This document shows, in pieces, positions 16,488-34,595 of a stretch of DNA of 64,000 nucleotides. Position numbers and translations under genes: made by a program. The notes beneath the pieces were generated by a model, which was not told the origin of the DNA, ran no database searches, and was given only the letters and a program-made list of their open reading frames with translations. Numbering within the stretch: the first letter of the stretch is position 1; every line of letters begins with the position of its first letter. Origin of the DNA: a virus (Duplodnaviria; Heunggongvirae; Uroviricota; Caudoviricetes). Where the stretch lies: positions 1 through 64,000 of IMG/VR virus record IMGVR_UViG_3300006151_000006. One strand, written 5' to 3'.

Positions 16488-16561
16488 TCGTCCTGTCCAG
16501 ACTCGAACTGGAACCTTCAGAGCCAAAATCTGACGTGCTGACCAATTGACACCACAGGACA
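16488..16561 (-). tRNA. tRNA-Gln(UUG)
   Basis: U1-G72 acceptor pair, anticodon loop TTTTGGC, T-loop TTCGAGT. Confidence 0.7.
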
Positions 16562-16565
16562 AGAT

Positions 16566-16772
16566 TTATCGGTTAAAGACTTTAACAAACCCTCCGATTA
16601 TGACACAAATGAATAGGACTGCCAATACGATGGCGAAAGGCCCCCAAAGTGGAGCAAGCACCCACCACCACGACCAAGTAATGATATTACACAGTTTCAG
16701 TGTAATGAAAATCAATCCAAGGATCGCTAAAAATGGGAAACTGGTTGAAGTGGTTTTCTGAATATTTGCCAT
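16566..16772 (-). CDS. small membrane protein (2 TM helices)
   Basis: MANIQKT... is very hydrophobic. The longer listed ORF overlaps tRNAs and is rejected. Confidence 0.4.
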   Translation of the reverse strand: MANIQKTTSTSFPFLAILGLIFITLKLCNIITWSWWWVLAPLWGPFAIVLAVLFICVIIGGFVKVFNR

Positions 16773-16794
16773 AGTTTTTATATTAATGGTTTTG

Positions 16795-16881
16795 CGGAAG
16801 CGATGAGACTCGAACTCATAAGCCGGTTTCCCGACAGGCACGTTAGCAGTGTGCTGGTTTGACCAATTCACCCACACTTCC
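16795..16881 (-). tRNA. tRNA-Ser(GCU)
   Basis: Type II with a long variable arm, 3 bp D stem, anticodon loop CTGCTAA, discriminator G. Confidence 0.75.
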
Positions 16882-16887
16882 AATTTG

Positions 16888-16961
16888 CAGCGCATACCGG
16901 ACTCGAACCGGCGATCTCCTCCGTGACAGGGAGGCGTCCACTCCAACTGAACTGATGCGCT
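16888..16961 (-). tRNA. tRNA-Asp(GUC)
   Basis: Anticodon loop CTGTCAC, stem CCTCC/GGAGG. Confidence 0.8.
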
Positions 16962-16969
16962 ATATATTG

Positions 16970-17042
16970 TATGGGTGACAGGGCTCGAACCTGCGACATC
17001 TACATCCCAAATGTAGCACTCTACCAACTGAGCTACACCCAT
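16970..17042 (-). tRNA. tRNA-Pro(UGG)
   Basis: Anticodon loop TTTGGGA. Confidence 0.75.
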
Positions 17043-17048
17043 ATATTG

Positions 17049-17122
17049 CAAGTCGTGAAGGATTTGAACCTCCGAAATTTGGTTTTGGAGACCAACGCAA
17101 TAGACCACTCTGCCAACGACTT
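17049..17122 (-). tRNA. tRNA-Trp(CCA)
   Basis: Anticodon loop CTCCAAA. Confidence 0.75.
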
Positions 17123-17129
17123 GTGTTAG

Positions 17130-17201
17130 AGGGCATGGTGGGGGTCGAACCCACGACCTGACGGTTAACAGCCGCCTGCTCTACCACTGAGCTACAAACC
17201 C
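17130..17201 (-). tRNA. tRNA-Asn(GUU)
   Basis: Anticodon loop CTGTTAA; one U-U mismatch in the acceptor stem. Confidence 0.7.
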
Positions 17202-17207
17202 ATTATA

Positions 17208-17280
17208 GACACTCTTGTCAGAATCGAACTGACGTGTACGGTTTTGCAGACCGCCGCCTCGCCACTCGGCCAAAGAGTGT
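17208..17280 (-). tRNA. tRNA-Cys(GCA)
   Basis: Anticodon loop CTGCAAA. Confidence 0.7.
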
Positions 17281-17282
17281 TG

Positions 17283-17356
17283 TGGACCCGACAAGAATCG
17301 AACTTGTGCCCTTCGACTTATGAGGTCGCTGCTCTAACCAACTGAGCTACAGATCC
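17283..17356 (-). tRNA. tRNA-Met(CAU) (elongator or Ile2-type)
   Basis: Anticodon loop CTCATAA; lacks the initiator features. Confidence 0.7.
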
Positions 17357-17361
17357 ATTTG

Positions 17362-17436
17362 GGTGATAGATGGAAGTTGAACCCATGACCTCCTGATTCA
17401 CAGACAGGTGCTCTAACCACCTAAGCTACTAACACC
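17362..17436 (-). tRNA. tRNA-His(GUG)
   Basis: Anticodon loop CTGTGAA; the extra 5' G(-1) pairs with C73. Confidence 0.8.
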
Positions 17437-17437
17437 G

Positions 17438-17509
17438 TGGATTGAGATGGATTTGAACCACCGACGCTTGGCTCTTCAGGCCAACGCTCTACCACTGAGC
17501 TATCAATCC
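17438..17509 (-). tRNA. tRNA-Phe(GAA)
   Basis: Anticodon loop CTGAAGA. Confidence 0.8.
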
Positions 17510-17515
17510 TTAATG

Positions 17516-17587
17516 TACCCCCACCGGGAATCGAACCCGGATTTCAAGAATGAAAATCTTGCGTCCTAACCTTTAGACGACAGGGAC
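17516..17587 (-). tRNA. tRNA-Glu(UUC)
   Basis: Anticodon loop TTTTCAT; the acceptor stem carries four G-U pairs. Confidence 0.6.
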
Positions 17588-17589
17588 AT

Positions 17590-17674
17590 TGGTGGAAGCA
17601 GAAGGACTCGAACCTACGAACTCCGAAGAGGGCAGTTTTACAGACTGCTGCCGTTGCCGCTTGGCTATACTTCC
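17590..17674 (-). tRNA. tRNA-Tyr(GUA)
   Basis: Type II, anticodon loop CTGTAAA, CCA encoded. Confidence 0.75.
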
Positions 17675-17679
17675 ATTTG

Positions 17680-17753
17680 TCGGAAAAGATGGACTCGAAC
17701 CAACGACCTTCTGCGTATCAGGCAGATGCTCTAACCAACTGAGCTATTTTCCG
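17680..17753 (-). tRNA. tRNA-Ile(GAU)
   Basis: Anticodon loop CTGATAC. Confidence 0.8.
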
Positions 17754-17814
17754 ATAAACTCAGCGATTCTCACGAACCACTGAGAAAGATTGAATTATGT
17801 GCAATTTAAACCAT

Positions 17815-17890
17815 GTCAGACAATCGGGACTCGAACCCGAAACCGTTCCACCTTTTCGGTAGCTGCTCTGTCCAATTGAGCTATTGTCTG
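17815..17890 (-). tRNA. tRNA-like element with non-canonical anticodon arm (pseudo-tRNA?)
   Basis: Acceptor, D and T arms are perfect, but the anticodon region CTACCGAAAAGGTGG gives only a 5 nt loop, or a loop lacking U33. Confidence 0.4.
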
Positions 17891-17998
17891 TGCGCCCGCT
17901 ACGCAACTGAAGCGTTTCCCAACGACTCAGTACCTCCGACGCGTCTAAAACAATCTTTTCAACCTTAAAACAAAACCACAATAAACTAAAACCCTAAG

Positions 17999-18071
17999 AG
18001 CCACTTGCAAGACTCGAACTTGCGACCCCGATATTACAAGTATCGTGCTCTACCAACTGAGCTAAAGAGGC
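17999..18071 (-). tRNA. tRNA-Thr(UGU)
   Basis: Anticodon loop CTTGTAA. Confidence 0.75.
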
Positions 18072-18275
18072 ATACGGAATAAGTTGTTTACGCTTACCCC
18101 CAACTCCGATGACGGCCTTGCTCGGAGAAACACCGCCAGCTAACGTTCTGGCTCCGCGACTTACCAACCTCACCAGTTGTCTCTGGTATTGAGGTGCCGG
18201 AGGCTTTTCGATCCCTCGATCATTTCAGCAGTTAGAACTCGTCAAGTTGCTGAAAGGTGCGCACAAAGGCTGCGG

Positions 18276-18355
18276 TGGTTCGGGTAGGACTTGAACCTAC
18301 GTCATTCCGGTAGTTAACCGGTTGCTCTTACATGTACCTACTGAGCTACCAAACC
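18276..18355 (-). tRNA. tRNA-like element with a 15 nt D loop and a palindromic anticodon arm
   Basis: Acceptor and T arm are canonical. D region is GCTC-15nt-GAGC. Anticodon arm is CCGG TTAACTA CCGG with T at position 37. Confidence 0.4.
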
Positions 18356-18361
18356 TTGTAG

Positions 18362-18435
18362 TGGAGCCATCGGGAGTCGAACCCGAAACCTTCTGAATGC
18401 AAATCAGACGCTCTACCAATTAGAGCTATGACCCC
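18362..18435 (-). tRNA. tRNA-Ala(UGC)
   Basis: Anticodon loop TTTGCAT, G3-U70 identity pair, discriminator A. Confidence 0.8.
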
Positions 18436-18478
18436 AAATCCGCAAAGACACAAAGGGGATTGCGCCTTTGCGGTGTGT

Positions 18479-18805
18479 TTACATTTTCCACATACCGAAA
18501 TGTTCTCTCCAGTCAAGATAGTTGTTTGCACTTTCATAGAAGTACGCTTCTTTCTCAAAAGAGATATTTCGGTAAGCATTGCCGGGAAGAAAGAGTCTGG
18601 CAAGCCATTCCAACACATAAATAATGTAGAAGAAAATGTAGCCAAGTTCTTTCATCTGAGCAGTGTGGATCTTTTCGTGATTCCATAACCGTTCAGAGAT
18701 TTTGACATCATTGCGTACAAATAAAACTCCGAAGAGATTGATAGCAGCAAATCCGGGGAACGGTATGAATGAATTGCGGATTATTTTCATCGTCTGACAT
18801 TCCAC
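18479..18805 (-). CDS. HExxH-motif putative metallohydrolase/peptidase (membrane-associated)
   Basis: Hydrophobic N-terminus followed by RLWNHEKIHTAQMKELGY. Confidence 0.5.
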   Translation of the reverse strand: MECQTMKIIRNSFIPFPGFAAINLFGVLFVRNDVKISERLWNHEKIHTAQMKELGYIFFYIIYVLEWLARLFLPGNAYRNISFEKEAYFYESANNYLDWREHFGMWKM

Positions 18806-19611
18806 ATAGTGCTGGATGTGCCGCCATCAAAAAGTACGTCAATATTTGCACCCTGTTTGGCCGCAATCACATCCCATGCTTTCAGGCTGATAAACTGTTC
18901 CGCAGTAAGACCCATTTCTCGCTGGTATGCCTTGTCAGACACAGCACGTTGTCGTTCAGCCTGCTCTCGTGCAACCTCAGTTTCGTAACGCCGCTCCTGA
19001 GTCTGTTTGGCCTGAATCTGTGCCGCAGTGTTATTCATTTCCTTTAGCTGTGCGTCATTAGGGATTGCGCGTCCTGTAATGACATTTTCAACAACGACAG
19101 GAAACTCCTTCTGGGTGGACAACCGGGCAATATGTCGAATCATATCGGCTTTAACACATGAGTCGATGTGTGCGACAACCTCTCGGTTGCTGGTAAGGTC
19201 AAACGGGGAATACTGAGAAACATAGTGTCGAGTGAGGTTGTTGTAAACTTCCTTGATATTGTTCTCATACCAGTTGACACCATAATTCTTCAGAAGAACG
19301 GGACTCTTGCCTTTCTCGATTCGGAGAATAATCTGAGTCTTGAAATCCAGAGGGGGGTTTTCATTAGAAATGATGTCATCCAGCGTTTCCTCGTAACGGA
19401 CAGGAGTTACTTTGAAGGTTTCGCTTGAAGTGCTCCAGAAGCACCAAGTAAGACCGGTCTCAGCGGGTTCCATGTCCACGCCACCATGTCCGAAAAACCA
19501 CGGCTTAGTGATCAACACTGCTTCTTCATCAGCGTCAGGGCACACGCCGTGACAGCTGGAAACGGCAACGCACATAATTAGTGCGAGAAATAGTTTAATG
19601 AAATGTTTCAT
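18787..19611 (-). CDS. SPFH/band-7 family lipoprotein
   Basis: Lipobox AVSSC, a PHB-like core, and a coiled-coil C-terminus (EAERQRAV...). Confidence 0.55.
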   Translation of the reverse strand: MKHFIKLFLALIMCVAVSSCHGVCPDADEEAVLITKPWFFGHGGVDMEPAETGLTWCFWSTSSETFKVTPVRYEETLDDIISNENPPLDFKTQIILRIEKGKSPVLLKNYGVNWYENNIKEVYNNLTRHYVSQYSPFDLTSNREVVAHIDSCVKADMIRHIARLSTQKEFPVVVENVITGRAIPNDAQLKEMNNTAAQIQAKQTQERRYETEVAREQAERQRAVSDKAYQREMGLTAEQFISLKAWDVIAAKQGANIDVLFDGGTSSTMWNVRR

Positions 19612-19647
19612 AATTGTTTGGTTTGTTAAAATGTCAATGTTCTCTTT

Positions 19648-19728
19648 TGTGGGCTAACCGAGACTCGAACTCGGACACCGATGGTACAGCATTTTGAGTG
19701 CTGCGTGTCTACCAATTCCACCATTAGC
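19648..19728 (-). tRNA. tRNA-Leu(CAA)
   Basis: Type II, anticodon loop CTCAAAA, discriminator A. Confidence 0.75.
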
Positions 19729-19733
19729 CCTTA

Positions 19734-19817
19734 TGTGCTCCGACTGGGAGTCGAACCCAGACGGTCACTATGACCAAGGGATTTTAAGTCCCTCGCGTCT
19801 ACCATTCCGCCACCGGA
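19734..19817 (-). tRNA. tRNA-Leu(UAA)
   Basis: Type II, anticodon loop CTTAAAA. Confidence 0.75.
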
Positions 19818-19827
19818 GCTTAGAAGT

Positions 19828-20040
19828 TTATTTAAGCCACCGAATTAACATGGACAGCAGCCAACCGTGACGTACTTTAGTCTGTTTCAACTCCTTCTTT
19901 TGGAGCTTTAGCATCGCTATCTCAGCCTTATGTGCAGCAATTTTGTTGTCAATATCGGCATTAAGCAATGCGATTTCAGATTGATTGTCTTGCAGTGATC
20001 TAATCACTGAATCACGACGGTTGTTGAATACTGTGTCCAT
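19828..20040 (-). CDS. small coiled-coil protein
   Basis: Internal start MDTVF; the longer ORF overlaps tRNAs. Confidence 0.35.
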   Translation of the reverse strand: MDTVFNNRRDSVIRSLQDNQSEIALLNADIDNKIAAHKAEIAMLKLQKKELKQTKVRHGWLLSMLIRWLK

Positions 20041-20056
20041 ATCTTTTAGAATTTGT

Positions 20057-20140
20057 TGGTGGGCCACGCAGGACTCGAACCTGCACACCTTTCGATACTG
20101 GTTCCTAAGACCAGCGCGTCTACCATTTCGCCAGTAGCCC
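20057..20140 (-). tRNA. tRNA-Leu(UAG)
   Basis: Type II, anticodon loop CTTAGGA, CCA encoded. Confidence 0.75.
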
Positions 20141-20198
20141 GATTTTGCTGAGAGTGGTGAACCTCTCAGCTGGCTCCCTATATTGGTGAGTGCCTTTG

Positions 20199-20270
20199 TA
20201 GCGGGAGTAGGACTCGAACCTACGACCTCTGGGTAATGAGCCCAGCAAGCTACCACTGCTCTATCCCGCA
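20199..20270 (-). tRNA. initiator tRNA-fMet(CAU)
   Basis: Unpaired 1:72, A11:U24, and three G-C pairs at the base of the anticodon stem. Confidence 0.7.
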
Positions 20271-26240: not shown

Positions 26241-27386
26241 TTATTTCACCGAGAAAAAATTGTCAGATTGTGTTGACAAATTTAGTGATTTGGGTTCAGT
26301 TGCGCAAGAGGTGGAGATATTTTGAGTCTCCCCCTCTTGCGAGTGTAGCCCCTGGTGCTGTATGTCGTACCTCCTTGCCACGGCGATACCCTCGATGAAA
26401 GTCTGCATCGGTGTTTTTCCGAAGCAGTATTTTCCGGAGTGTGTCCTCTCGGTGTTGTAGTGATTCATCCATACGTCGAGGTCGGCCTGAAGCTGTTCGA
26501 TGGAGGTGTATATCTTCTTGCGGAAAGCGATGGCGTAGAACTCGTTCTGCACGGTACGGTTGAACCTCTCGCAGATGCCGTTTGTCTGAGGACTCTTTGC
26601 CTTTATCTTGGAGTGGTCGATGTCCTCTATTGCGAGGTAGAGTTCGAACTCGTGGGTCTCGCGGTTTCCGCAGTATTCGGTTCCGCGGTCTGTGAGCATC
26701 CGCATCACCCTGAGGTCGTGCTGTTCAAAGAAAGGCACGACACGGTCGTTGAGCATGTCGGCTGCGACAAGTGCGTTCTTGCGGTCGTACAGCTTTGCGA
26801 AGCCGATTTTGGAATAGGTGTCTATGACGGTCTGCTGGTAGATGTGTCCCACGCCCTTGATATGTCCCACATAATATGTGTCCTGTGCCACAAGGAAGCC
26901 GGGGTGGAACGTCTCGATCTCGCCGTGTGCCTGTTTCTCGGCCTTTGCCTTCTCCAGAGCCGCCACCTGCGTTTCGTCAAGGATTATCCCTTCCTGCTCG
27001 ACTTTGGCCGACAGTGCTTTCAGGCGTTTCTGAAAAGTCTCCAGATCGTGGCGCAGCCATATGGAGCGCACCCCTCCCTGCGAGACCATTATGCCCCTCT
27101 TGCGCAGTTCGTTGGACACGCGCACCTGTCCGAGTGCCGGGTTCTCGAAGGCCATCTGCACGACGGCGTTCTCTATGCGCTCCTCAACTCGGTTCTTTAT
27201 CACCGGCTTGCGGCGCGATATCTCCTGCAACGCGAGTTCTCCGCCCTGCTCGTATAGTTCCTTGAAGCGGTAGAAGCTGTCGCGGCTGTAGCCCATTATC
27301 TTGCAGGCGCGCGACACGTTGCCCAGTTGCTGGGACAGTTCCAACAGTCCCAGTTTGTTCTTGATGACTTTTTCTGATGTGGTCAT
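26241..27386 (-). CDS. IS481-family transposase (DDE integrase core)
   Basis: SRACKIMGYSRDSFYRFK HTH, then D(AQDTYY), D(TDRGTEY) and E(NGICERFNRT). The C-terminal tail probably reads through the IS end. Confidence 0.8.
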   Translation of the reverse strand: MTTSEKVIKNKLGLLELSQQLGNVSRACKIMGYSRDSFYRFKELYEQGGELALQEISRRKPVIKNRVEERIENAVVQMAFENPALGQVRVSNELRKRGIMVSQGGVRSIWLRHDLETFQKRLKALSAKVEQEGIILDETQVAALEKAKAEKQAHGEIETFHPGFLVAQDTYYVGHIKGVGHIYQQTVIDTYSKIGFAKLYDRKNALVAADMLNDRVVPFFEQHDLRVMRMLTDRGTEYCGNRETHEFELYLAIEDIDHSKIKAKSPQTNGICERFNRTVQNEFYAIAFRKKIYTSIEQLQADLDVWMNHYNTERTHSGKYCFGKTPMQTFIEGIAVARRYDIQHQGLHSQEGETQNISTSCATEPKSLNLSTQSDNFFSVK

Positions 27387-28786: not shown

Positions 28787-29878
28787 TCATTTTCTTTTGC
28801 GCCATCCGGCCATTTTTGCTTTTATGTCAATGTCATTGTCCTCAATGAATTTCTTCATCAAGCCGAACAGTTTCCAACCGTCAGTTTGGTGTTCTGCGGC
28901 CTTGTCGTGGAGCTTTTTGATAGAGCCAATCTGAGATAAGGCTCGGCCTTCAACGTACATACGACATCCGTGAAAGAGGATAAGATTTTTGAGCGTGAAG
29001 AATGCACCCGCTCCTTTGTATGCACCTTTGAAGATGCCAGCCTGTCTCATGCTTGATTTGACATAGCAATTCTTAACCGCTTTATAAAACCCTTTAACAG
29101 CCAGATATAGTTCTGCGGTATTGTTGGCTTCATTGATGTGGTTGTACCACACCGTCAGAGGCCCCCACACTTCAGCTTCCACATTGTCAACGAATATGTT
29201 TCGATGACAGATGCGGATATATTTGCGACCTTGACATTTACGCACATGTCGATCTTTCACGATTACTTTGAGTTGAGCGAGATAGTCTTTGGCCATTCCG
29301 ATTGCTACAGCCTTGTTGAACCAGCGATTACGTTCAACAAAATTCTCAATATCAGTTACCTCAAGTTTAGCCTGAACACGCAGCTCTTCGAGAAGCATTT
29401 CCCACGAATACTGATAACCCTTTCGATTGAGAGCTTCAGTAAAGCCGCCGGGAGCGACAAGCATGTGGAATGCCTGAGCCATCACCCAACGACGGAATAG
29501 ACGGCGATTAGGAATTGTACCGCCTGCCATAATCTTAGCGAATATGGGGTCGTTGTCAGGCACTTCTACAACCTGATTGTTGACCATACGAACAATCTTG
29601 CTTTCTCCAGACGCTCCACGCATTGAGAACAAGTTCGCGACATTGACCCCAGCGTTACGGAGAGCTGTCAGCTTATCGTCAGCTGAGAGTCTGCCAGATT
29701 GGGGTTGTTCACTGTCAAGAGTAAGAGCGACAGTTCCAAGATTGCTGTCTTTTCCCACTGCTACACCGGTTGCGATGTGCTGATGTGCGGGAATTGCGAA
29801 GTTGGCTCCACATACGGGGCATACGATTTTAGTTTCCTGATTTGGCATAATTATTGAGTTTACTGTTTGATAATCCAT
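28787..29878 (-). CDS. hypothetical protein with N-terminal zinc ribbon
   Basis: CPVCGANF...H; 363 aa. Confidence 0.5.
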   Translation of the reverse strand: MDYQTVNSIIMPNQETKIVCPVCGANFAIPAHQHIATGVAVGKDSNLGTVALTLDSEQPQSGRLSADDKLTALRNAGVNVANLFSMRGASGESKIVRMVNNQVVEVPDNDPIFAKIMAGGTIPNRRLFRRWVMAQAFHMLVAPGGFTEALNRKGYQYSWEMLLEELRVQAKLEVTDIENFVERNRWFNKAVAIGMAKDYLAQLKVIVKDRHVRKCQGRKYIRICHRNIFVDNVEAEVWGPLTVWYNHINEANNTAELYLAVKGFYKAVKNCYVKSSMRQAGIFKGAYKGAGAFFTLKNLILFHGCRMYVEGRALSQIGSIKKLHDKAAEHQTDGWKLFGLMKKFIEDNDIDIKAKMAGWRKRK

Positions 29879-30309
29879 TTTTTAAGAATGATGAGAGAGG
29901 GTTCGTTGGGAGATTGCCAGAACCATTTGTCCTTAGCAAATTCATCCCATACGATAGATTGGTTGATGATTGCAATGAGAAGATAAAGCTCCAATGCAAT
30001 CTGAGCGGTTTCACGATGCTCTCCGTAAAGCATATCTTCATCGTCAAGCTCGTGTTCTGGAAGTGCTCGGAAATAATTGCGTCTTTTGTTATCACTTCGA
30101 GCAGATGGGATGCTGTGATTGTAACGATGATAAAGTCGCTCAATCTCAGCGAGAGAAAAGTCGGAAGGCTCAATGCCCAGACAGCCGTCAAATTGTCCGT
30201 TCTTGATAATGTATTTGCCATCAATTTTGAGGCTATGTTCTATAAAATTGACGCTGAATCGGGAGCCTTGCTCAACCTTTTCGATTGATTCTTTGTAGAT
30301 GTTTGTCAT
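29860..30309 (-). CDS. hypothetical protein
   Basis: 149 aa ORF. Confidence 0.45.
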   Translation of the reverse strand: MTNIYKESIEKVEQGSRFSVNFIEHSLKIDGKYIIKNGQFDGCLGIEPSDFSLAEIERLYHRYNHSIPSARSDNKRRNYFRALPEHELDDEDMLYGEHRETAQIALELYLLIAIINQSIVWDEFAKDKWFWQSPNEPSLIILKKWIIKQ

Positions 30310-30339
30310 ATAGTTGTTAAAAATGAAATGCTCAAAGTC

Positions 30340-31600
30340 TTGACGTATTTCTGTATTTCTATGATGTCATCGAGGGAAGCGAAGGCCTCCTCAAGCGAAA
30401 GCAGGACCTCGGAGGATTCCTCCGAATGGTCCTGCGGGCTTGGGAGGGTGCCCGGCCCCGATGAATGAAACAGAACCTCTTGCATTTCGATGTTACGTTA
30501 CATTTTATGATAATCTCATCAGCATGGCGCATTTCTTTAACTCTTTCAATGTGCGGGCTGATACTGAAGGATCAGCTCCAGTTGATTCGACTGGAGAAGA
30601 TCCTTGCGTGTGGCAGCCCACAATGAATCTTACTGTCTTGATCATCATATTTGCGCTATCTATATTGTTCTCAATTACTTTGCACATCGCTATATCTGAT
30701 TGATGTGAACTGTTTATTACGCGGCGGGCCTGCCGGTAAGATGTCACGGTAGGGCCAGATAACCGGCAGGCCCGCCGCGATATGTAACAGTTCGACTGAA
30801 AGTGTAATCATTGAACAATAATCTGCTGTGCTTCAGTGCCACACTCAATGATGGTTGTATGTTTCTTTATAAAGTTGATATGAGAAGCTACCGACTATTC
30901 GTCGTCATATCCGTTAGGAGATGACGACGAATGATGGAGGAGCTATCACATTAAATCTTCATCATATTATGTGGTTGATCGCATACTCGACGATGTGATT
31001 GTGTTTCCGATTATGTGTAACTATATGTTTTTGATATGACTACGAGTGAGATCCTGTACCGGGACGCTGATACATCAGAATCCTTCTGAAGTAGAAGTCG
31101 TCCCGGTACAGGAGATATACTCGTGCTCATTAAATACCGGGATTTCCAATCACGCGCTGCACATCCAGCTTATAGTTGTCATGCCGATTGTATGTTTCTG
31201 TATTCTATTCGATGTACTCCTGAATACAGTTGTCGAGAGAAAGCTGGAGGCTCTCCAGCTGACCTCTCGAAAATAAGGATTCAGGATGACTGAATTTCTC
31301 GGCCATTCAACTATCATCTGCATACTCAGATTTGAGAATAGTTAGAAGCATAGTGTAGTTCTATATATTGTTGATATGTATCTGTCTAACCAGAAGACGG
31401 CTGAGAGGAGTCGGCACGACTCCTCGATGACGTCTTCTGGTTAGAGACAGATAATTGAAGGTGGCTTCTTTCCATCCTCTCCGTACACTCGGTTATTGAC
31501 GATAGTCAGACTTGTAGTGCGTTGCTTTATTTGTTGATATTATCCCGCCATTGTTCGTTCACGGGATTATTAAATACTTGTCATTCTACCGTCACTGCGC
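30340..31600. repeat. tandem array of about 8 units (period roughly 150-180 bp): a conserved leader of about 25 nt, then a unique 40-90 nt near-perfect palindrome, then a short trailer
   Basis: Leader variants tGTATGTTTCT..TATAAAGTTGATATGA occur near 30349, 30530, 30690, 30852, 31009, 31190, 31355 and 31520. Palindromes include cgcggcgggcctgccggt/accggcaggcccgccgcg, attcgtcgtcat/atgacgacgaat, tcctgtaccgggacg/cgtcccggtacagga and tctgtctaaccagaagacg/cgtcttctggttagagacaga. Trailer reads CATTAAAT. Confidence 0.7.
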
Positions 31601-31613
31601 ACTCAGATAATTA

Positions 31614-32870
31614 TTATAAAGTAGCAACCAACGTTTTGTACGCTTCACGACTGGCAACCATTGCGTTTTGCATACAATTGATGGTTAAATACCCATCAAT
31701 TGTTACAATCTTAGAGCGATTTGCTTTAACGTTGCGTCCTATACCTCGTGAAATACATCCTTCTGATTGAGTGGCGACATAACCGAGACCACCAACTTTC
31801 TTCTTTCCTGTAGCAACCGCTTTCAGACAATCCATCACAAATTTGTTAAGTTCCTGAATGTCTTTCTTAACGTTGCATACCGGCAGAATTTGAGTGGCCC
31901 AGCTATATTCTCCATTTCCTTTATAAAGAAAGCGATTGACAGCGTTGATGGCTTTCTTCAGTGTTGCACCTTTTGCTTTGATGGTGCGAGCCTCGATTTC
32001 TTTCTGGAATTTCTTAATTCTGGTCCCGCTTAATGAAATGTCAGAACCTTTGATGGAATATCCGAGAAACTTAAACCATCGGGTATGAGTAAGGTATTCG
32101 ACTTTCTTGGGGTTGAGCGTCATTTCTTTCTCAGCCAGTTTATCTTTCAACACATTCATTGCAACCTCGTAATCGGTTCCGATGAACAAAATGTCATCTG
32201 AATATCTGACATCGTAGCCATCAAGTTTAGCTAATTCTTCATCAATGTCATAAAGAATGACATCAGCAAGCCACGAGGCGACTGAACAGCCCTGTTTAAG
32301 TGATTGATATGCGCTTTTAAGTTGCCCATCAGTGTCGAAGTATAAATCAGAATGATAGTATTTCCTAAGCACATCAATCAATGAAGAATGACCATACTTT
32401 GCTTCTACTGAATCAAAAGCCGCATCAATGAAACGAAGGGGAACGCTGTCAAAATATTTACTTAAATCAGCTTTCCAGCCAATCACATCGCCTTGGGTTT
32501 CACATATTTTGCGTGACGCTTCCTGAACAATTTTCCCACAGCCAATACCTTTCTGATATGATTGGCAATGTGGGTGTATCATCTCAGGCATCAGTTCAAA
32601 CAACAAGTCATTTGTGATACTGAGAAGTATGCGATCTGCCGGTTCATTGATATACACGGTTCGATATTCTCCATTGTCCTTAGGAATTTGTGCTGTATGC
32701 GGTGGGGCTATTTCGTAGCGGCCATCACGGATTGCTTCATACATCTGAACTCGTGTTTCCGGCTTTGTCAACTGATAAAGCTCGCTCTTAGCGATGCTCT
32801 TGCCGACACCTTTCTCGATAGCATATATCCATCGTTCAGGTTCAAAGAATTTTTCTAAGATGTAATCCAT
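31614..32870 (-). CDS. reverse transcriptase (group-II-intron/retron-like RT domain plus thumb-like C-terminus)
   Basis: RT1 IPKDNGEYRTVYI, RT2 SYQKGIG, motif A DLSKYFDSV, B' QGCSVASWLADVIL, C RYSDDILFIG, plus HTRWFKFLGYSI; 418 aa. Confidence 0.85.
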   Translation of the reverse strand: MDYILEKFFEPERWIYAIEKGVGKSIAKSELYQLTKPETRVQMYEAIRDGRYEIAPPHTAQIPKDNGEYRTVYINEPADRILLSITNDLLFELMPEMIHPHCQSYQKGIGCGKIVQEASRKICETQGDVIGWKADLSKYFDSVPLRFIDAAFDSVEAKYGHSSLIDVLRKYYHSDLYFDTDGQLKSAYQSLKQGCSVASWLADVILYDIDEELAKLDGYDVRYSDDILFIGTDYEVAMNVLKDKLAEKEMTLNPKKVEYLTHTRWFKFLGYSIKGSDISLSGTRIKKFQKEIEARTIKAKGATLKKAINAVNRFLYKGNGEYSWATQILPVCNVKKDIQELNKFVMDCLKAVATGKKKVGGLGYVATQSEGCISRGIGRNVKANRSKIVTIDGYLTINCMQNAMVASREAYKTLVATL

Positions 32871-32886
32871 TTTACTGTTTGCGGGG

Positions 32887-33135
32887 TTAAAACCATCTGA
32901 GAAGCCTTGCGGTTTCCCAGTAGAAATTATATTGTGGGTAGAGTTCTTTTAAAATGCTTATAAGCTTACCTCTAATTGGATGTTTGTAGATAAATAACTG
33001 ATAATCGGCTATTTTAAAGTCTCTATTTTTTCTTAGCCCACTCAATGTTAGGAGAGAAGATATAAAGTCCTCAATCTTTATCTCTGCGGGATTTTCGAGG
33101 ATAGGCTTTCGGACTCGTTTTCTTTTTCGGGGCAT
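32887..33135 (-). CDS. hypothetical basic protein
   Basis: 82 aa; overlaps the next ORF, so the two may be one frameshifted gene. Confidence 0.3.
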   Translation of the reverse strand: MPRKRKRVRKPILENPAEIKIEDFISSLLTLSGLRKNRDFKIADYQLFIYKHPIRGKLISILKELYPQYNFYWETARLLRWF

Positions 33136-33415
33136 GGATTTTTCCTGTTTTTAATAGTTCCTGTTTACGTTTCCGATATTTCCTCTTTGCCTCAGCCCAG
33201 TATTCAGCTGATCTTTTAGGAGCAGGCGGACGAGGCTGAGGGTTAATTATATGCTGGATGAGTCTTCTTGAGACCCTGAACATCGCTGCAAGCTTGCGTT
33301 GACTGTAACCTTTCTGAACGAGAATGATAATAGCATTTCGCTCATCTTGAGTCAACTTAACTCGCTTATCGTGTTTTGTTCCGGCGATGGGTATATTGTC
33401 ACTGCGATATGGCAT
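33071..33415 (-). CDS. HTH DNA-binding protein with a highly basic tail
   Basis: LVQKGYSQRKLAAMFRVSRRLIQ, then a K/R/P-rich C-terminus. Confidence 0.45.
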   Translation of the reverse strand: MPYRSDNIPIAGTKHDKRVKLTQDERNAIIILVQKGYSQRKLAAMFRVSRRLIQHIINPQPRPPAPKRSAEYWAEAKRKYRKRKQELLKTGKIHAPKKKTSPKAYPRKSRRDKD

Positions 33416-33487
33416 TGTTGCTGATGTTTGTGAAGAATAGTTGGTGTTGGTGTCCTACGTTGTCCATAAACTCGACTTTAACATTCG

Positions 33488-33853
33488 TTATTTAACAAAT
33501 CCGCCAAAGTTGATTGGAATAGATACATCGCTTACTGCCACAGTTTCCGGGATGCGACCGGTGATATAGCTTAGGTGGCCCGGTTCTGCATAGATGATTT
33601 CAGTATCAAAACCATACTCGTTCTCTACGCCAAATACCGTAAGCCAGTCGTGACCATCTACACGCTCTACCGTAACTTTCTCTACTTTGTAGTCTGATGC
33701 ACACTCTGCGTGTTTGGTCGATGCCAATATCACAGGAGCATCCTCAGAGCTGAATCCTATTTCACCGCCATGAGCAATTACGGCAGCGATAAGTTCATTT
33801 TCCTCGTGCTTTTTAATTGCCTCAAGGAGATGATAGAAGTCTGTATGCTTCAT
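33488..33853 (-). CDS. hypothetical protein
   Basis: 121 aa ORF. Confidence 0.45.
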   Translation of the reverse strand: MKHTDFYHLLEAIKKHEENELIAAVIAHGGEIGFSSEDAPVILASTKHAECASDYKVEKVTVERVDGHDWLTVFGVENEYGFDTEIIYAEPGHLSYITGRIPETVAVSDVSIPINFGGFVK

Positions 33854-34101
33854 TAGTTAAAATCTTTATGGGTTAAATATTGAACCTTTTCGCAGTTACA
33901 CATATATTCGATGCCTCCATCGGAGTAGCCGCAGTAATCAAAGAGAAAGAGATAAAGTTTCTCGTCTTTATCAACTTTTGCCCATTCGTCATCTTCATAC
34001 CACTCGGACAATTCGTTTCTGAGGTCATTCTCCAGCCATTCGTCGTCCACAGAAATGACATCGACGCTGTTGGTGTTAAAATCAAGTACGGCTATCTTCA
34101 T
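33853..34101 (-). CDS. hypothetical acidic protein
   Basis: 82 aa ORF. Confidence 0.4.
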   Translation of the reverse strand: MKIAVLDFNTNSVDVISVDDEWLENDLRNELSEWYEDDEWAKVDKDEKLYLFLFDYCGYSDGGIEYMCNCEKVQYLTHKDFN

Positions 34102-34595
34102 TTTCGTTCTCCAAGTTTACGTTCTGCATTTGGGTTAGTTGTCGTCCAACCTACATAGTCCCAACCAGTACCCCAATGCGTTACACAAAGGATGTACCGG
34201 TCAAGCAAGTTGCTGTATGTAAATTGAAGACCGAATGTCTCGCGAAGATATTTGACATCAGATTCTGAGCAGTCGGTGATGAGCCACTGGAAGATTTCAG
34301 GTTCGTCAATGTCATCATCGTCATTCTCTTCATCGGGATTCCAGATGTGGCCACAGTTTTCACATTCCCACTCTTCAGTTTCATCTCCGTCATCGTCAAT
34401 ATAGGGGCGAATTTTCATTGTCCCACATTCTGGACATTCGTCGGGTGCTTCTGAGGAGGCTGTGATGTCTATCGCAGGTAGCATGTTGGCCCATAATGAT
34501 GAGTCTATTTCAGGCAGCTTATTGCAAAGCACCATGTCATTATTGAGCCATTCCACAGCTACCCTGTAGTTGGTTTGATATATTTGAGTTGCCAT
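34098..34595 (-). CDS. hypothetical protein with zinc ribbon (CPECG...CENCG)
   Basis: 165 aa. Confidence 0.45.
   Translation of the reverse strand: MATQIYQTNYRVAVEWLNNDMVLCNKLPEIDSSLWANMLPAIDITASSEAPDECPECGTMKIRPYIDDDGDETEEWECENCGHIWNPDEENDDDDIDEPEIFQWLITDCSESDVKYLRETFGLQFTYSNLLDRYILCVTHWGTGWDYVGWTTTNPNAERKLGERK

Follow-up and report, generated by a model that had tools for sequence, protein, structure and literature searches.

A UG27 retroelement with an array of eight noncoding RNA units in a phage probably infecting Bacteroidales

UG27 was defined by Mestre et al. (2022) as a group of class 2 UG/Abi reverse transcriptases (RTs), which occurs mostly in gut phages of Bacteroidetes and Firmicutes, together with two associated proteins of unknown function and a putative noncoding RNA (ncRNA) in a long intergenic region, and which shows no enrichment in defence islands (PMC9226505). 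In a preprint of 2026-09-24, more than 14,000 UG27 loci were counted and the intergenic region was described as an array of units of approximately 150 nucleotides (nt), each with a hypervariable central hairpin that is enclosed by UUYA and AUCNNNNNNNUANAG in an asymmetric internal loop and is accompanied by a base hairpin and a pseudoknot (bioRxiv 10.64898/2026.09.22.753630). In E. coli, five UG27 systems gave rise to single-stranded DNA (ssDNA) of 50-100 nt from the central hairpins, with its start at AUC and its end after UUYA; this ssDNA required the YSDD active site and, in the two systems tested, was lost upon deletion of either accessory open reading frame (ORF) (bioRxiv 10.64898/2026.09.22.753630). 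The role of UG27 is not known, and the payloads, i.e., the unit-specific central hairpins, were reported to lack complementarity to phage or host genomes (bioRxiv 10.64898/2026.09.22.753630). Here, we describe an RT gene with an adjoining repeat array in positions 1 to 64,000 of the IMG/VR virus record IMGVR_UViG_3300006151_000006 (Caudoviricetes); this whole stretch of 64,000 nt is referred to as the window. With a probability of roughly 0.9 we consider the locus a complete UG27 retroelement of a phage of about 112 kb infecting Bacteroidales. Every sequence-level feature of the preprint's description was found at this locus, and by homology its eight units most likely serve as templates for as many different short DNA hairpins. 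A first-pass annotation of the bare sequence had suggested that the system could be new; since the same architecture has been described and tested in the preprint, the locus is a new example of an already published kind of system.

The RT gene encodes 418 aa, as stated in the first-pass annotation, with the RYSDD active site in the context ...VRYSDDILF... and a match to Pfam RVT_1 with an E-value of 4.5e-22. PADLOC model RT_UG27 covers the protein completely (residues 1-418 on profile positions 2-420 of 420; E 1.4e-224, 743.7 bits), and the second-best PADLOC model is UG26 with 118 bits. Compared with the models for other UG/DRT, retron, and group II RTs, these profile scores place the RT in UG27. 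Its length lies inside the 380-450 aa range and its YSDD agrees with the catalytic motif that the preprint gives for UG27. The protein shares 70% identity with the RT of an Alistipes putredinis locus (L150) and 66% with its counterpart in a Phocaeicola coprophilus locus (L133). On the minus strand, a stretch of 1.3 kb lacking any credible ORF separates the RT gene from the ORFs of 149 aa and 363 aa for a small (sORF) and a large (bORF) accessory protein; RT, array, sORF, and bORF all share the minus-strand orientation (Table 1). The array begins 2 nt past the RT stop codon and stops 6 nt short of the sORF ATG. In public gene calls, the start of bORF is Met11 (29848), which results in a protein of 353 aa.

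Table 1. Components of the UG27 locus and predicted features of the eight ncRNA units; positions refer to the window, predicted complementary DNA (cDNA) is given as plus-strand interval, and z denotes the folding z score calculated with DNA parameters.
Feature	Position	Strand	Length	UUYA	Core (nt)	AUC of 3' motif	Predicted cDNA	Pseudoknot	z	Remarks
UG27 reverse transcriptase	31614..32870	-	418 aa							active site RYSDD
ncRNA array, eight abutting units	30315..31612	-								fills RT-sORF gap
sORF, small accessory protein	29860..30309	-	149 aa							
bORF, large accessory protein	28787..29878	-	363 aa							as longest ORF
Unit 1	31489..31612	-	124 nt	31574-31571	32	31538	31536-31574, 39 nt	AGUGCG/CGCACU	-1.6	N6 variant of 3' motif
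Unit 2	31336..31488	-	153 nt	31459	80	31375	31373-31459, 87 nt	AGUGUA/UACACU	-10.8	DNA fold -30.6 kcal/mol
Unit 3	31162..31335	-	174 nt	31294	77	31213	31211-31294, 84 nt	GUAUG/CAUAC	-6.75	N8 variant of 3' motif
Unit 4	30997..31161	-	165 nt	31134	95	31035	31033-31134, 102 nt	AUGUG/CACAU	-9.3	
Unit 5	30829..30996	-	168 nt	30955	72	30879	30877-30955, 79 nt	GUAUG/CAUAC	-6.15	
Unit 6	30667..30828	-	162 nt	30800	92	30704	30702-30800, 99 nt	GCACA/UGUGC	-8.3	18-bp perfect arms (inverted repeat I4)
Unit 7	30499..30666	-	168 nt	30627	73	30550	30548-30627, 80 nt	GCGCA/UGCGC	-5.6	AUU for AUC, N8 variant
Unit 8	30315..30498	-	184 nt	30469	100	30365	30363-30469, 107 nt	ACGUA/UACGU	-5.7	core with 64% G+C

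In all eight units, both published boundary motifs bracket the palindrome on the RT strand. UUYA is present throughout, as TTTA in three and as TTCA in five units. The exact 3' motif ATCNNNNNNNTANAG (AUC-N7-UANAG) occurs five times on the minus strand within approximately 1.0 kb, compared to 7.8 occurrences expected in the whole window on both strands, and the remaining three units possess one-step variants of it (N6, N8, and AUU with N8). The spacing between a 3' motif, counted from its end, and the following UUYA is 62-66 nt throughout the array. No two cores are alike, and with a G+C content of 0.53 they exceed the scaffold (0.35) and the whole window (0.43). A strong hairpin fold was obtained for seven of the eight cores or predicted cDNAs (z of -5.6 to -10.8, -18.9 to -35.4 kcal/mol).

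The first-pass annotation had described an RT followed by about eight units with a conserved element and a variable palindrome each, a description borne out by eight minus-strand units in both the motif series and the covariance model R1 (see below). Its placement of the array holds insofar as the array adjoins the RT gene; the extent is 30315-31612, not from 30340 onwards, and "immediately followed" is true on the minus strand only. Likewise, conserved positions do exist in the proposed leader, which is not one block and consists of the reverse complement of the 3' motif (..TATAAAGTTGATATGA) plus one strand of the pseudoknot. The proposed trailer CATTAAAT (reverse complement ATTTAATG) was recovered in that or a near form in three of eight units, its conserved part being UUYA only; this trailer is the reverse complement of AUUUAAUG, which includes UUYA.

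Regular-expression and chain-based unit finders were too noisy, as a relaxed rule of motif, stem, and pseudoknot yielded about 100 candidates per strand in the window, and covariance models were used instead. Model R1 was built from trimmed units including the eight of this locus and was run with filters off against both strands of the 64-kb window (128 kb). At E <= 1, the matches numbered exactly eight, were confined to the minus strand, and tiled 30315-31612; due to the fact that R1 contains these units their detection is partly circular, and the informative part is the lack of any other and of any plus-strand match. Elsewhere, R1 gave 108 matches, distributed over 67 further loci; every one lies on the RT strand, and almost all are located between RT and sORF. 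Furthermore, the same motif series is situated directly downstream of the RT gene in 80 viral and 80 genome loci. A second model, R2, whose only source was prophage arrays in genomes of Alistipes, Phocaeicola, and Bacteroides, detected unit 1 (55.4 bits, E 2.7e-11) and unit 7 (E 0.024) in the window. The scaffolds of the present array belong to the same RNA family as the R2 arrays, from which they have diverged in sequence.

In some relatives, units were also observed outside the gap between RT and sORF (L033 9614-9778; L048 9309-10045; L145 9665-9846; L129 4003-4172). One extra unit lies right after bORF in L033 and a motif series after bORF in L048, and the match in L129 is located upstream of the RT gene. 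In the present window, no unit was found outside the RT-sORF gap.

Each unit has the same order of elements from 5' to 3'. A small hairpin (stem of 3-5 bp, loop of 6-9 nt) precedes a basal stem, whose two arms enclose UUYA, the core, the 3' motif, and, last, 5-6 nt that pair with the small-hairpin loop. UUYA (5' side) and AUC-N6-8-UANAG (3' side) form an asymmetric internal loop. The pseudoknot between the small-hairpin loop and the 5-6 nt after UANAG is present in eight of eight units; its sequences vary between units and complementarity is kept, which is covariation inside one array. An alignment of 23 diverse units, the eight described here and 15 from other loci with their cores trimmed to the first and last 10 nt, was used for a wider comparison. 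For the structure named above, 76.6% of the cells are paired in this alignment, compared to 51% upon shuffling and 30-43% if partners are slid, and the covariation score of 0.671 (versus 0.25) was matched in none of 500 shuffles. Pairing amounts to 97-100% in the pseudoknot helices, with GC, AU, UA, and CG exchanges, and to 94% in the small hairpin; every pair shows changes on its two sides. Among 146 distinct units of related loci, cognate arms of the basal stems pair with -15.8 kcal/mol and non-cognate arms with -9.1 kcal/mol; the median folding z of the central cores is -6.6. Across relatives, mean cognate and non-cognate pseudoknot complementarities are 5.1 and 4.5, respectively, and most relatives have an identical pseudoknot sequence. 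Since this comparison did not discriminate, the evidence for the pseudoknot is based on the column-wise count and on the unit pairs of the window itself.

Both accessory genes are conserved next to the array, each of them in 76 of 81 viral loci; among 80 genome loci, this holds for sORF in 67 and for bORF in 65. The gene order is retained in Alistipes putredinis DSM 17216, with identities of 70% for RT, 47% for sORF (E 2e-43), and 42% for bORF (E 3e-87), and in Phocaeicola coprophilus DSM 18228 homologues of sORF (E 6e-43) and bORF (E 1e-96) occur in the same order. Seven and five units were found by R1 in the arrays of A. putredinis and P. coprophilus, respectively. UG27 systems of these two species were studied in the preprint (bioRxiv 10.64898/2026.09.22.753630). 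RT, array, sORF, and bORF are the only parts common to 76 of the 81 viral loci, and the flanking genes change; as these four parts are shared while their neighbours differ, they move as a cassette. No known domain was found in bORF by domain searches, in agreement with the preprint. The N-terminus of bORF, CPVCGANFAIPAHQH, contains CxxC in a zinc-ribbon-like segment, and homologues in NCBI records are named "zinc-ribbon domain protein" or "ubiquitin carboxyl-hydrolase". For residues 120-353 a confident all-helical domain was predicted, with no informative match in the PDB.

The cassette bears on the possibility, raised in part by the first-pass annotation as a phage origin or decoy-RNA array, that the array acts as DNA or as RNA that is not reverse transcribed, e.g., as a cruciform origin, a packaging signal, or a sponge or decoy RNA, and that the adjoining RT serves something else. 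Long palindromes are indeed typical of origins, and the cDNA of this phage is a prediction only. In the loci fetched, the array never occurs apart from RT, sORF, and bORF, whereas the flanks differ, which lends no support to an origin, and a DNA origin would not require a scaffold that covaries as RNA with a pseudoknot; moreover, related arrays are proven cDNA templates (bioRxiv 10.64898/2026.09.22.753630). We consider this explanation very improbable.

Even less credence is given to an assignment of the units to the opposite strand. According to the first-pass annotation, each unit is its own plus-strand transcription unit with a Bacteroides-type promoter, TAnnGTTG, about 7 nt in front of the palindrome, which would result in eight small hairpin RNAs converging on the RT gene. 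The plus strand of units 2 and 5 does read TAnnGTTG, one mismatch from the Bacteroides -7 consensus, and perfect palindromes fold equally well on both strands. Only these two of eight units come within one mismatch of the consensus, though, and exact TAnnTTTG is absent from both strands of 29226-34578. The constant positions in the supposed promoters read CTnTA-N7-GAT, the reverse complement of AUC-N7-UANAG, and thus are minus-strand motifs. In 125 of 146 units the duplex of the basal stem is stronger on the RT strand, compared to 19 units in which it is weaker, a difference implying G-U pairs on the RT strand. In alignment A2, 47 G-U pairs compare to 34 A-C pairs, a count blurred by shifts of helix registers introduced by MAFFT, and the minimum free energy of whole mini-units, better for the sense strand in 83 units and worse in 62, did not discriminate between the strands. 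For neither covariance model was a plus-strand match below E 0.7 obtained in the array, and the published cDNA polarity demands an RNA template from the RT strand (bioRxiv 10.64898/2026.09.22.753630). A scan for sigma-70 promoters and terminators gave counts at chance level and no terminator-like site inside the array. Judged by its motifs and stems, the array is read on the RT (minus) strand.

Another RT system in an unusual layout, i.e., a retron with several msr/msd copies, DRT2 or DRT9, a group II intron, or a diversity-generating retroelement (DGR), is hardly credible: there are weak RT-domain matches to Drt9 (78.5 bits), group II maturase (94 bits, cut-off 300), and retron St85 (37 bits, cut-off 235), and among solved RTs those closest in sequence belong to group II and the "retron-type" (E of about 1e-12), but UG27 reaches 743.7 bits over the full length and all other models remain below 120 bits or far below their own cut-offs, the array yielded no Rfam family, be it retron msr, group II intron, or another, apart from sub-threshold miRNA look-alikes, 30200-31700 contains no long pair of template and variable repeats, and retron ncRNAs are single and usually upstream of the RT, in contrast to eight units downstream.

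The individual system classes were also considered separately, and the view of the first-pass annotation that the array is neither CRISPR nor a canonical retron, DGR, or group II intron is upheld by the repeat, Rfam, and RT-model tests, in case of DGRs for 30200-31700. With respect to the curated cut-offs, the RT lies far below those for group II maturase, retron, Drt2, Drt3, and Drt4. A retron was rejected on the basis of NCBIfam retron_St85_RT (37.4 bits versus a cut-off of 235), of 31-45 bits for the best PADLOC retron models, of the lack of an Rfam match in the array, and of the presence of eight units instead of one. In case of a group II intron, TIGR04416 scored 94.2 bits versus a cut-off of 300, and only tRNAs exceeded the Rfam gathering thresholds in the 64-kb window. 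Rfam searches of the array with gathering thresholds and with E-values returned nothing relevant, retron and group II RNAs included. A scan for template and variable repeats of a DGR, limited to 30200-31700, revealed no direct repeat longer than 24 nt, and identities of 68-100% were confined to very short matches. As for CRISPR, the repeat families comprise 10-24 nt in two or three copies with 68-100% identity, and the conserved elements are short and discontinuous.

Taken as a UG27 retroelement, the locus would work as follows. Due to the tight spacing (gaps of 2 nt and 6 nt) and the lack of a terminator-like site in the array, one minus-strand transcript through RT, array, sORF, and bORF is likely. 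Each unit would fold into the small 5' hairpin, the long basal stem, the internal loop, and the pseudoknot, and would thereby present its unit-specific central hairpin as payload. By homology with the systems of the preprint, RT, sORF, and bORF together would start DNA synthesis at AUC and stop after UUYA, yielding one short ssDNA hairpin of plus-strand sequence per unit, with predicted lengths of 39, 87, 84, 102, 79, 99, 80, and 107 nt for units 1 to 8. The first-pass annotation had considered an RT-associated multi-template system among its options, and the UG27 RT and the units with published template boundary motifs support it. Synthesis of cDNA at this locus is deduced from its relatives, while family, anatomy, strand, and covariation can be read from the locus itself.

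Several points weigh against this interpretation. The products of the locus are predictions only, and the priming of synthesis is explained neither by the preprint nor by the present results. The predicted cDNA of unit 1 is, with 39 nt, shorter than the reported 50-100 nt and folds weakly (z -1.6). Unit 7 has AUU at the predicted cDNA start, which is shared by only 4 of the 146 units surveyed. Five or six of the eight units escape R2, and the scaffolds of this array differ in sequence from the commonest type. Furthermore, sORF and bORF were identified by conserved position and homology, not by the hidden Markov models of the preprint's authors, and the A. putredinis and P. coprophilus genomes match the systems studied in the preprint at the level of species. 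Finally, the role in protein binding considered below is a guess with indirect support only: no complementarity of the payloads to the rest of the window or to the loci of 80 viral relatives, a like negative in the preprint, and payloads that are more conserved than the scaffold.

Among near-identical phage genomes in public assemblies, variation is concentrated in unit 2. The array is identical in L171, and the arrays of L164 and L163 deviate from that of the window solely in the payload of unit 2, which measures 59 nt and 32 nt, respectively, compared to 80 nt in the window, i.e., its apex is truncated by 21 nt or 48 nt. A further lineage, comprising L082, L083, L162, L167, and L168, is 94% identical over the shared 11 kb (a difference of about 6%). 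In these five genomes the apex of unit 2 is inverted (82-nt payload; alignment score of 14 inverted versus 2 direct) and its 3' motif has diverged. Outside unit 2, payloads differ between the two lineages (window versus L082 and L162) at 1.8% and the scaffold at 4.5% of positions (Fisher p 0.012). These observations suggest selection on the payload sequence and one unstable or exchanging unit. The variation of unit 2 may be due to palindrome instability, payload exchange, or artefacts of short-read assembly or of polymerases at palindromes.

BLAST searches with the eight payloads as queries gave nothing below E 0.8, either in the remainder of the window or in the loci of 80 viral relatives. 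Our best guess, although we regard it as somewhat unlikely, is that the hairpins bind proteins by sequence and shape and act as decoys or effectors in conflicts between phage and host or between phages, not as antisense guides. More far-fetched is the idea that the payloads constitute an evolving, re-programmable library that is edited or exchanged by a dedicated route, with each hairpin being a specific protein-binding effector under arms-race selection. As an example of such a route, hairpin cDNA might anneal back to the array during replication and thereby flip or trim an apex.

With regard to the phage itself, near-identical contigs have lengths of 111.5-112.2 kb, and RTs with 96% identity were found in contigs binned to Muribaculaceae and Bacteroidales metagenome-assembled genomes. 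The window contains phage-like small ORFs alongside 21 tRNA genes. The RT region resembles Bacteroides phage BS-TP1 with 70% nucleotide identity, and in a distant-mode search of the INPHARED collection only the RT part was matched, the array remaining without a match. BS-TP1 (L001, PQ571274.1) is a deposited, cultured phage, in which the UG27 RT is encoded by gp79 (79351-80613 of the record) and annotated as "tail protein". Its RT gene is followed by an unannotated gap of 1.35 kb with ncRNA units (R1 matches at L001 4654-5482) and then by homologues of sORF (gp80) and bORF (gp82).

Several features in the vicinity of the cassette were also recorded. Upstream of the RT gene, 32887-33415 (minus strand) harbours an 82-aa ORF and an overlapping gene for a helix-turn-helix protein of 114 aa (HTH_38, E 1.9e-6). 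Both are kept only in the closest relatives (L002, L082-L084) and thus lie outside the cassette, which they might regulate. Four small ORFs downstream of bORF, a DDE transposase of 381 aa (Pfam HTH_29, rve_3) is encoded at 26241-27386 (minus strand). It is located at the same place in L165 and L170 and absent from L166, and in L162, L167, L168, L171, and L172 an ORF of 205 aa with a Form_Nir_trans match occupies its place. The transposase looks like a polymorphic insertion sequence in the phage. Public gene callers annotated an ORF of 59 aa over unit 8 (30306-30485, minus strand) in the near-identical contigs L163-L166 and L170-L172; due to the overlap with a structured ncRNA unit, this ORF is probably spurious. 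The 21 tRNA genes are clustered on the minus strand at 16488-20270. Clusters of tRNA genes are frequent in large phages.

UG27 is a widespread phage-borne retroelement with a known product. The present locus is a clean and compact example with eight fully mapped units and many near-identical natural variants. A cultured relative with the same cassette, BS-TP1 grown on B. salyersiae BG8, opens the way to genetic tests of function. The first-pass annotation had come upon the system independently from raw sequence alone, with the wrong strand and hence a wrong promoter reading.

Compared with the described UG27 systems (bioRxiv 10.64898/2026.09.22.753630; PMC9226505), the locus agrees in RT family, length, and YSDD, in the two accessory ORFs without known domain, in the unit array with UUYA and AUC-N7-UANAG bracketing a hypervariable hairpin, in the base hairpin and the pseudoknot, in the carriage by a Bacteroidota phage, and in payloads without evident target. 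It differs in that its eight payloads are unique, none of them occurring in the 80 IMG/VR loci fetched through the RT. Its tiles measure 124-184 nt (most of them 153-184), whereas UG27 units are expected to span roughly 135-170 nt and published lengths peak at about 149 and 167 nt; one unit is very short (payload of 32 nt) and one has an AUU start. Pseudoknot sequences differ between its units, whereas most surveyed relatives have AGCAC/GUGC. Products were measured for the preprint's systems, whereas those of the present locus are predicted from sequence.

With retrons, the locus shares an RT that would copy the hairpin part of an adjacent structured ncRNA into short ssDNA, the RNA structure setting the template boundaries. 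In a retron, a single ncRNA with a1/a2 flanking repeats precedes the RT, in contrast to eight units downstream with other motifs and a pseudoknot, and its branching G primes a 2'-5' linked RNA-DNA hybrid. The effector proteins of retrons are replaced in UG27 by two accessory proteins of unknown function that are required for cDNA synthesis itself. DRT2 (UG2) and DRT9 (UG28) belong to the same broad RT class and also use a structured ncRNA template adjoining the RT, in case of DRT2 with a pseudoknot as well. These other class 2 UG RTs are host defences that produce long or concatemeric cDNA from a single ncRNA (bioRxiv 10.64898/2026.09.22.753630), whereas UG27 is phage-borne, not enriched in defence islands, and makes many short discrete hairpins; for the present RT, PADLOC gave 78.5 bits with Drt9 and 33.8 bits with Drt2, compared to 743.7 bits with UG27. 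As far as their description in PMC10370050 goes, the engineered retron arrays termed "multitrons" differ in being man-made, in their retron scaffolds, and in payloads that are editing donors, and they resemble the layout proposed here in that tandem templates are served by one RT and several distinct ssDNAs arise per cell.

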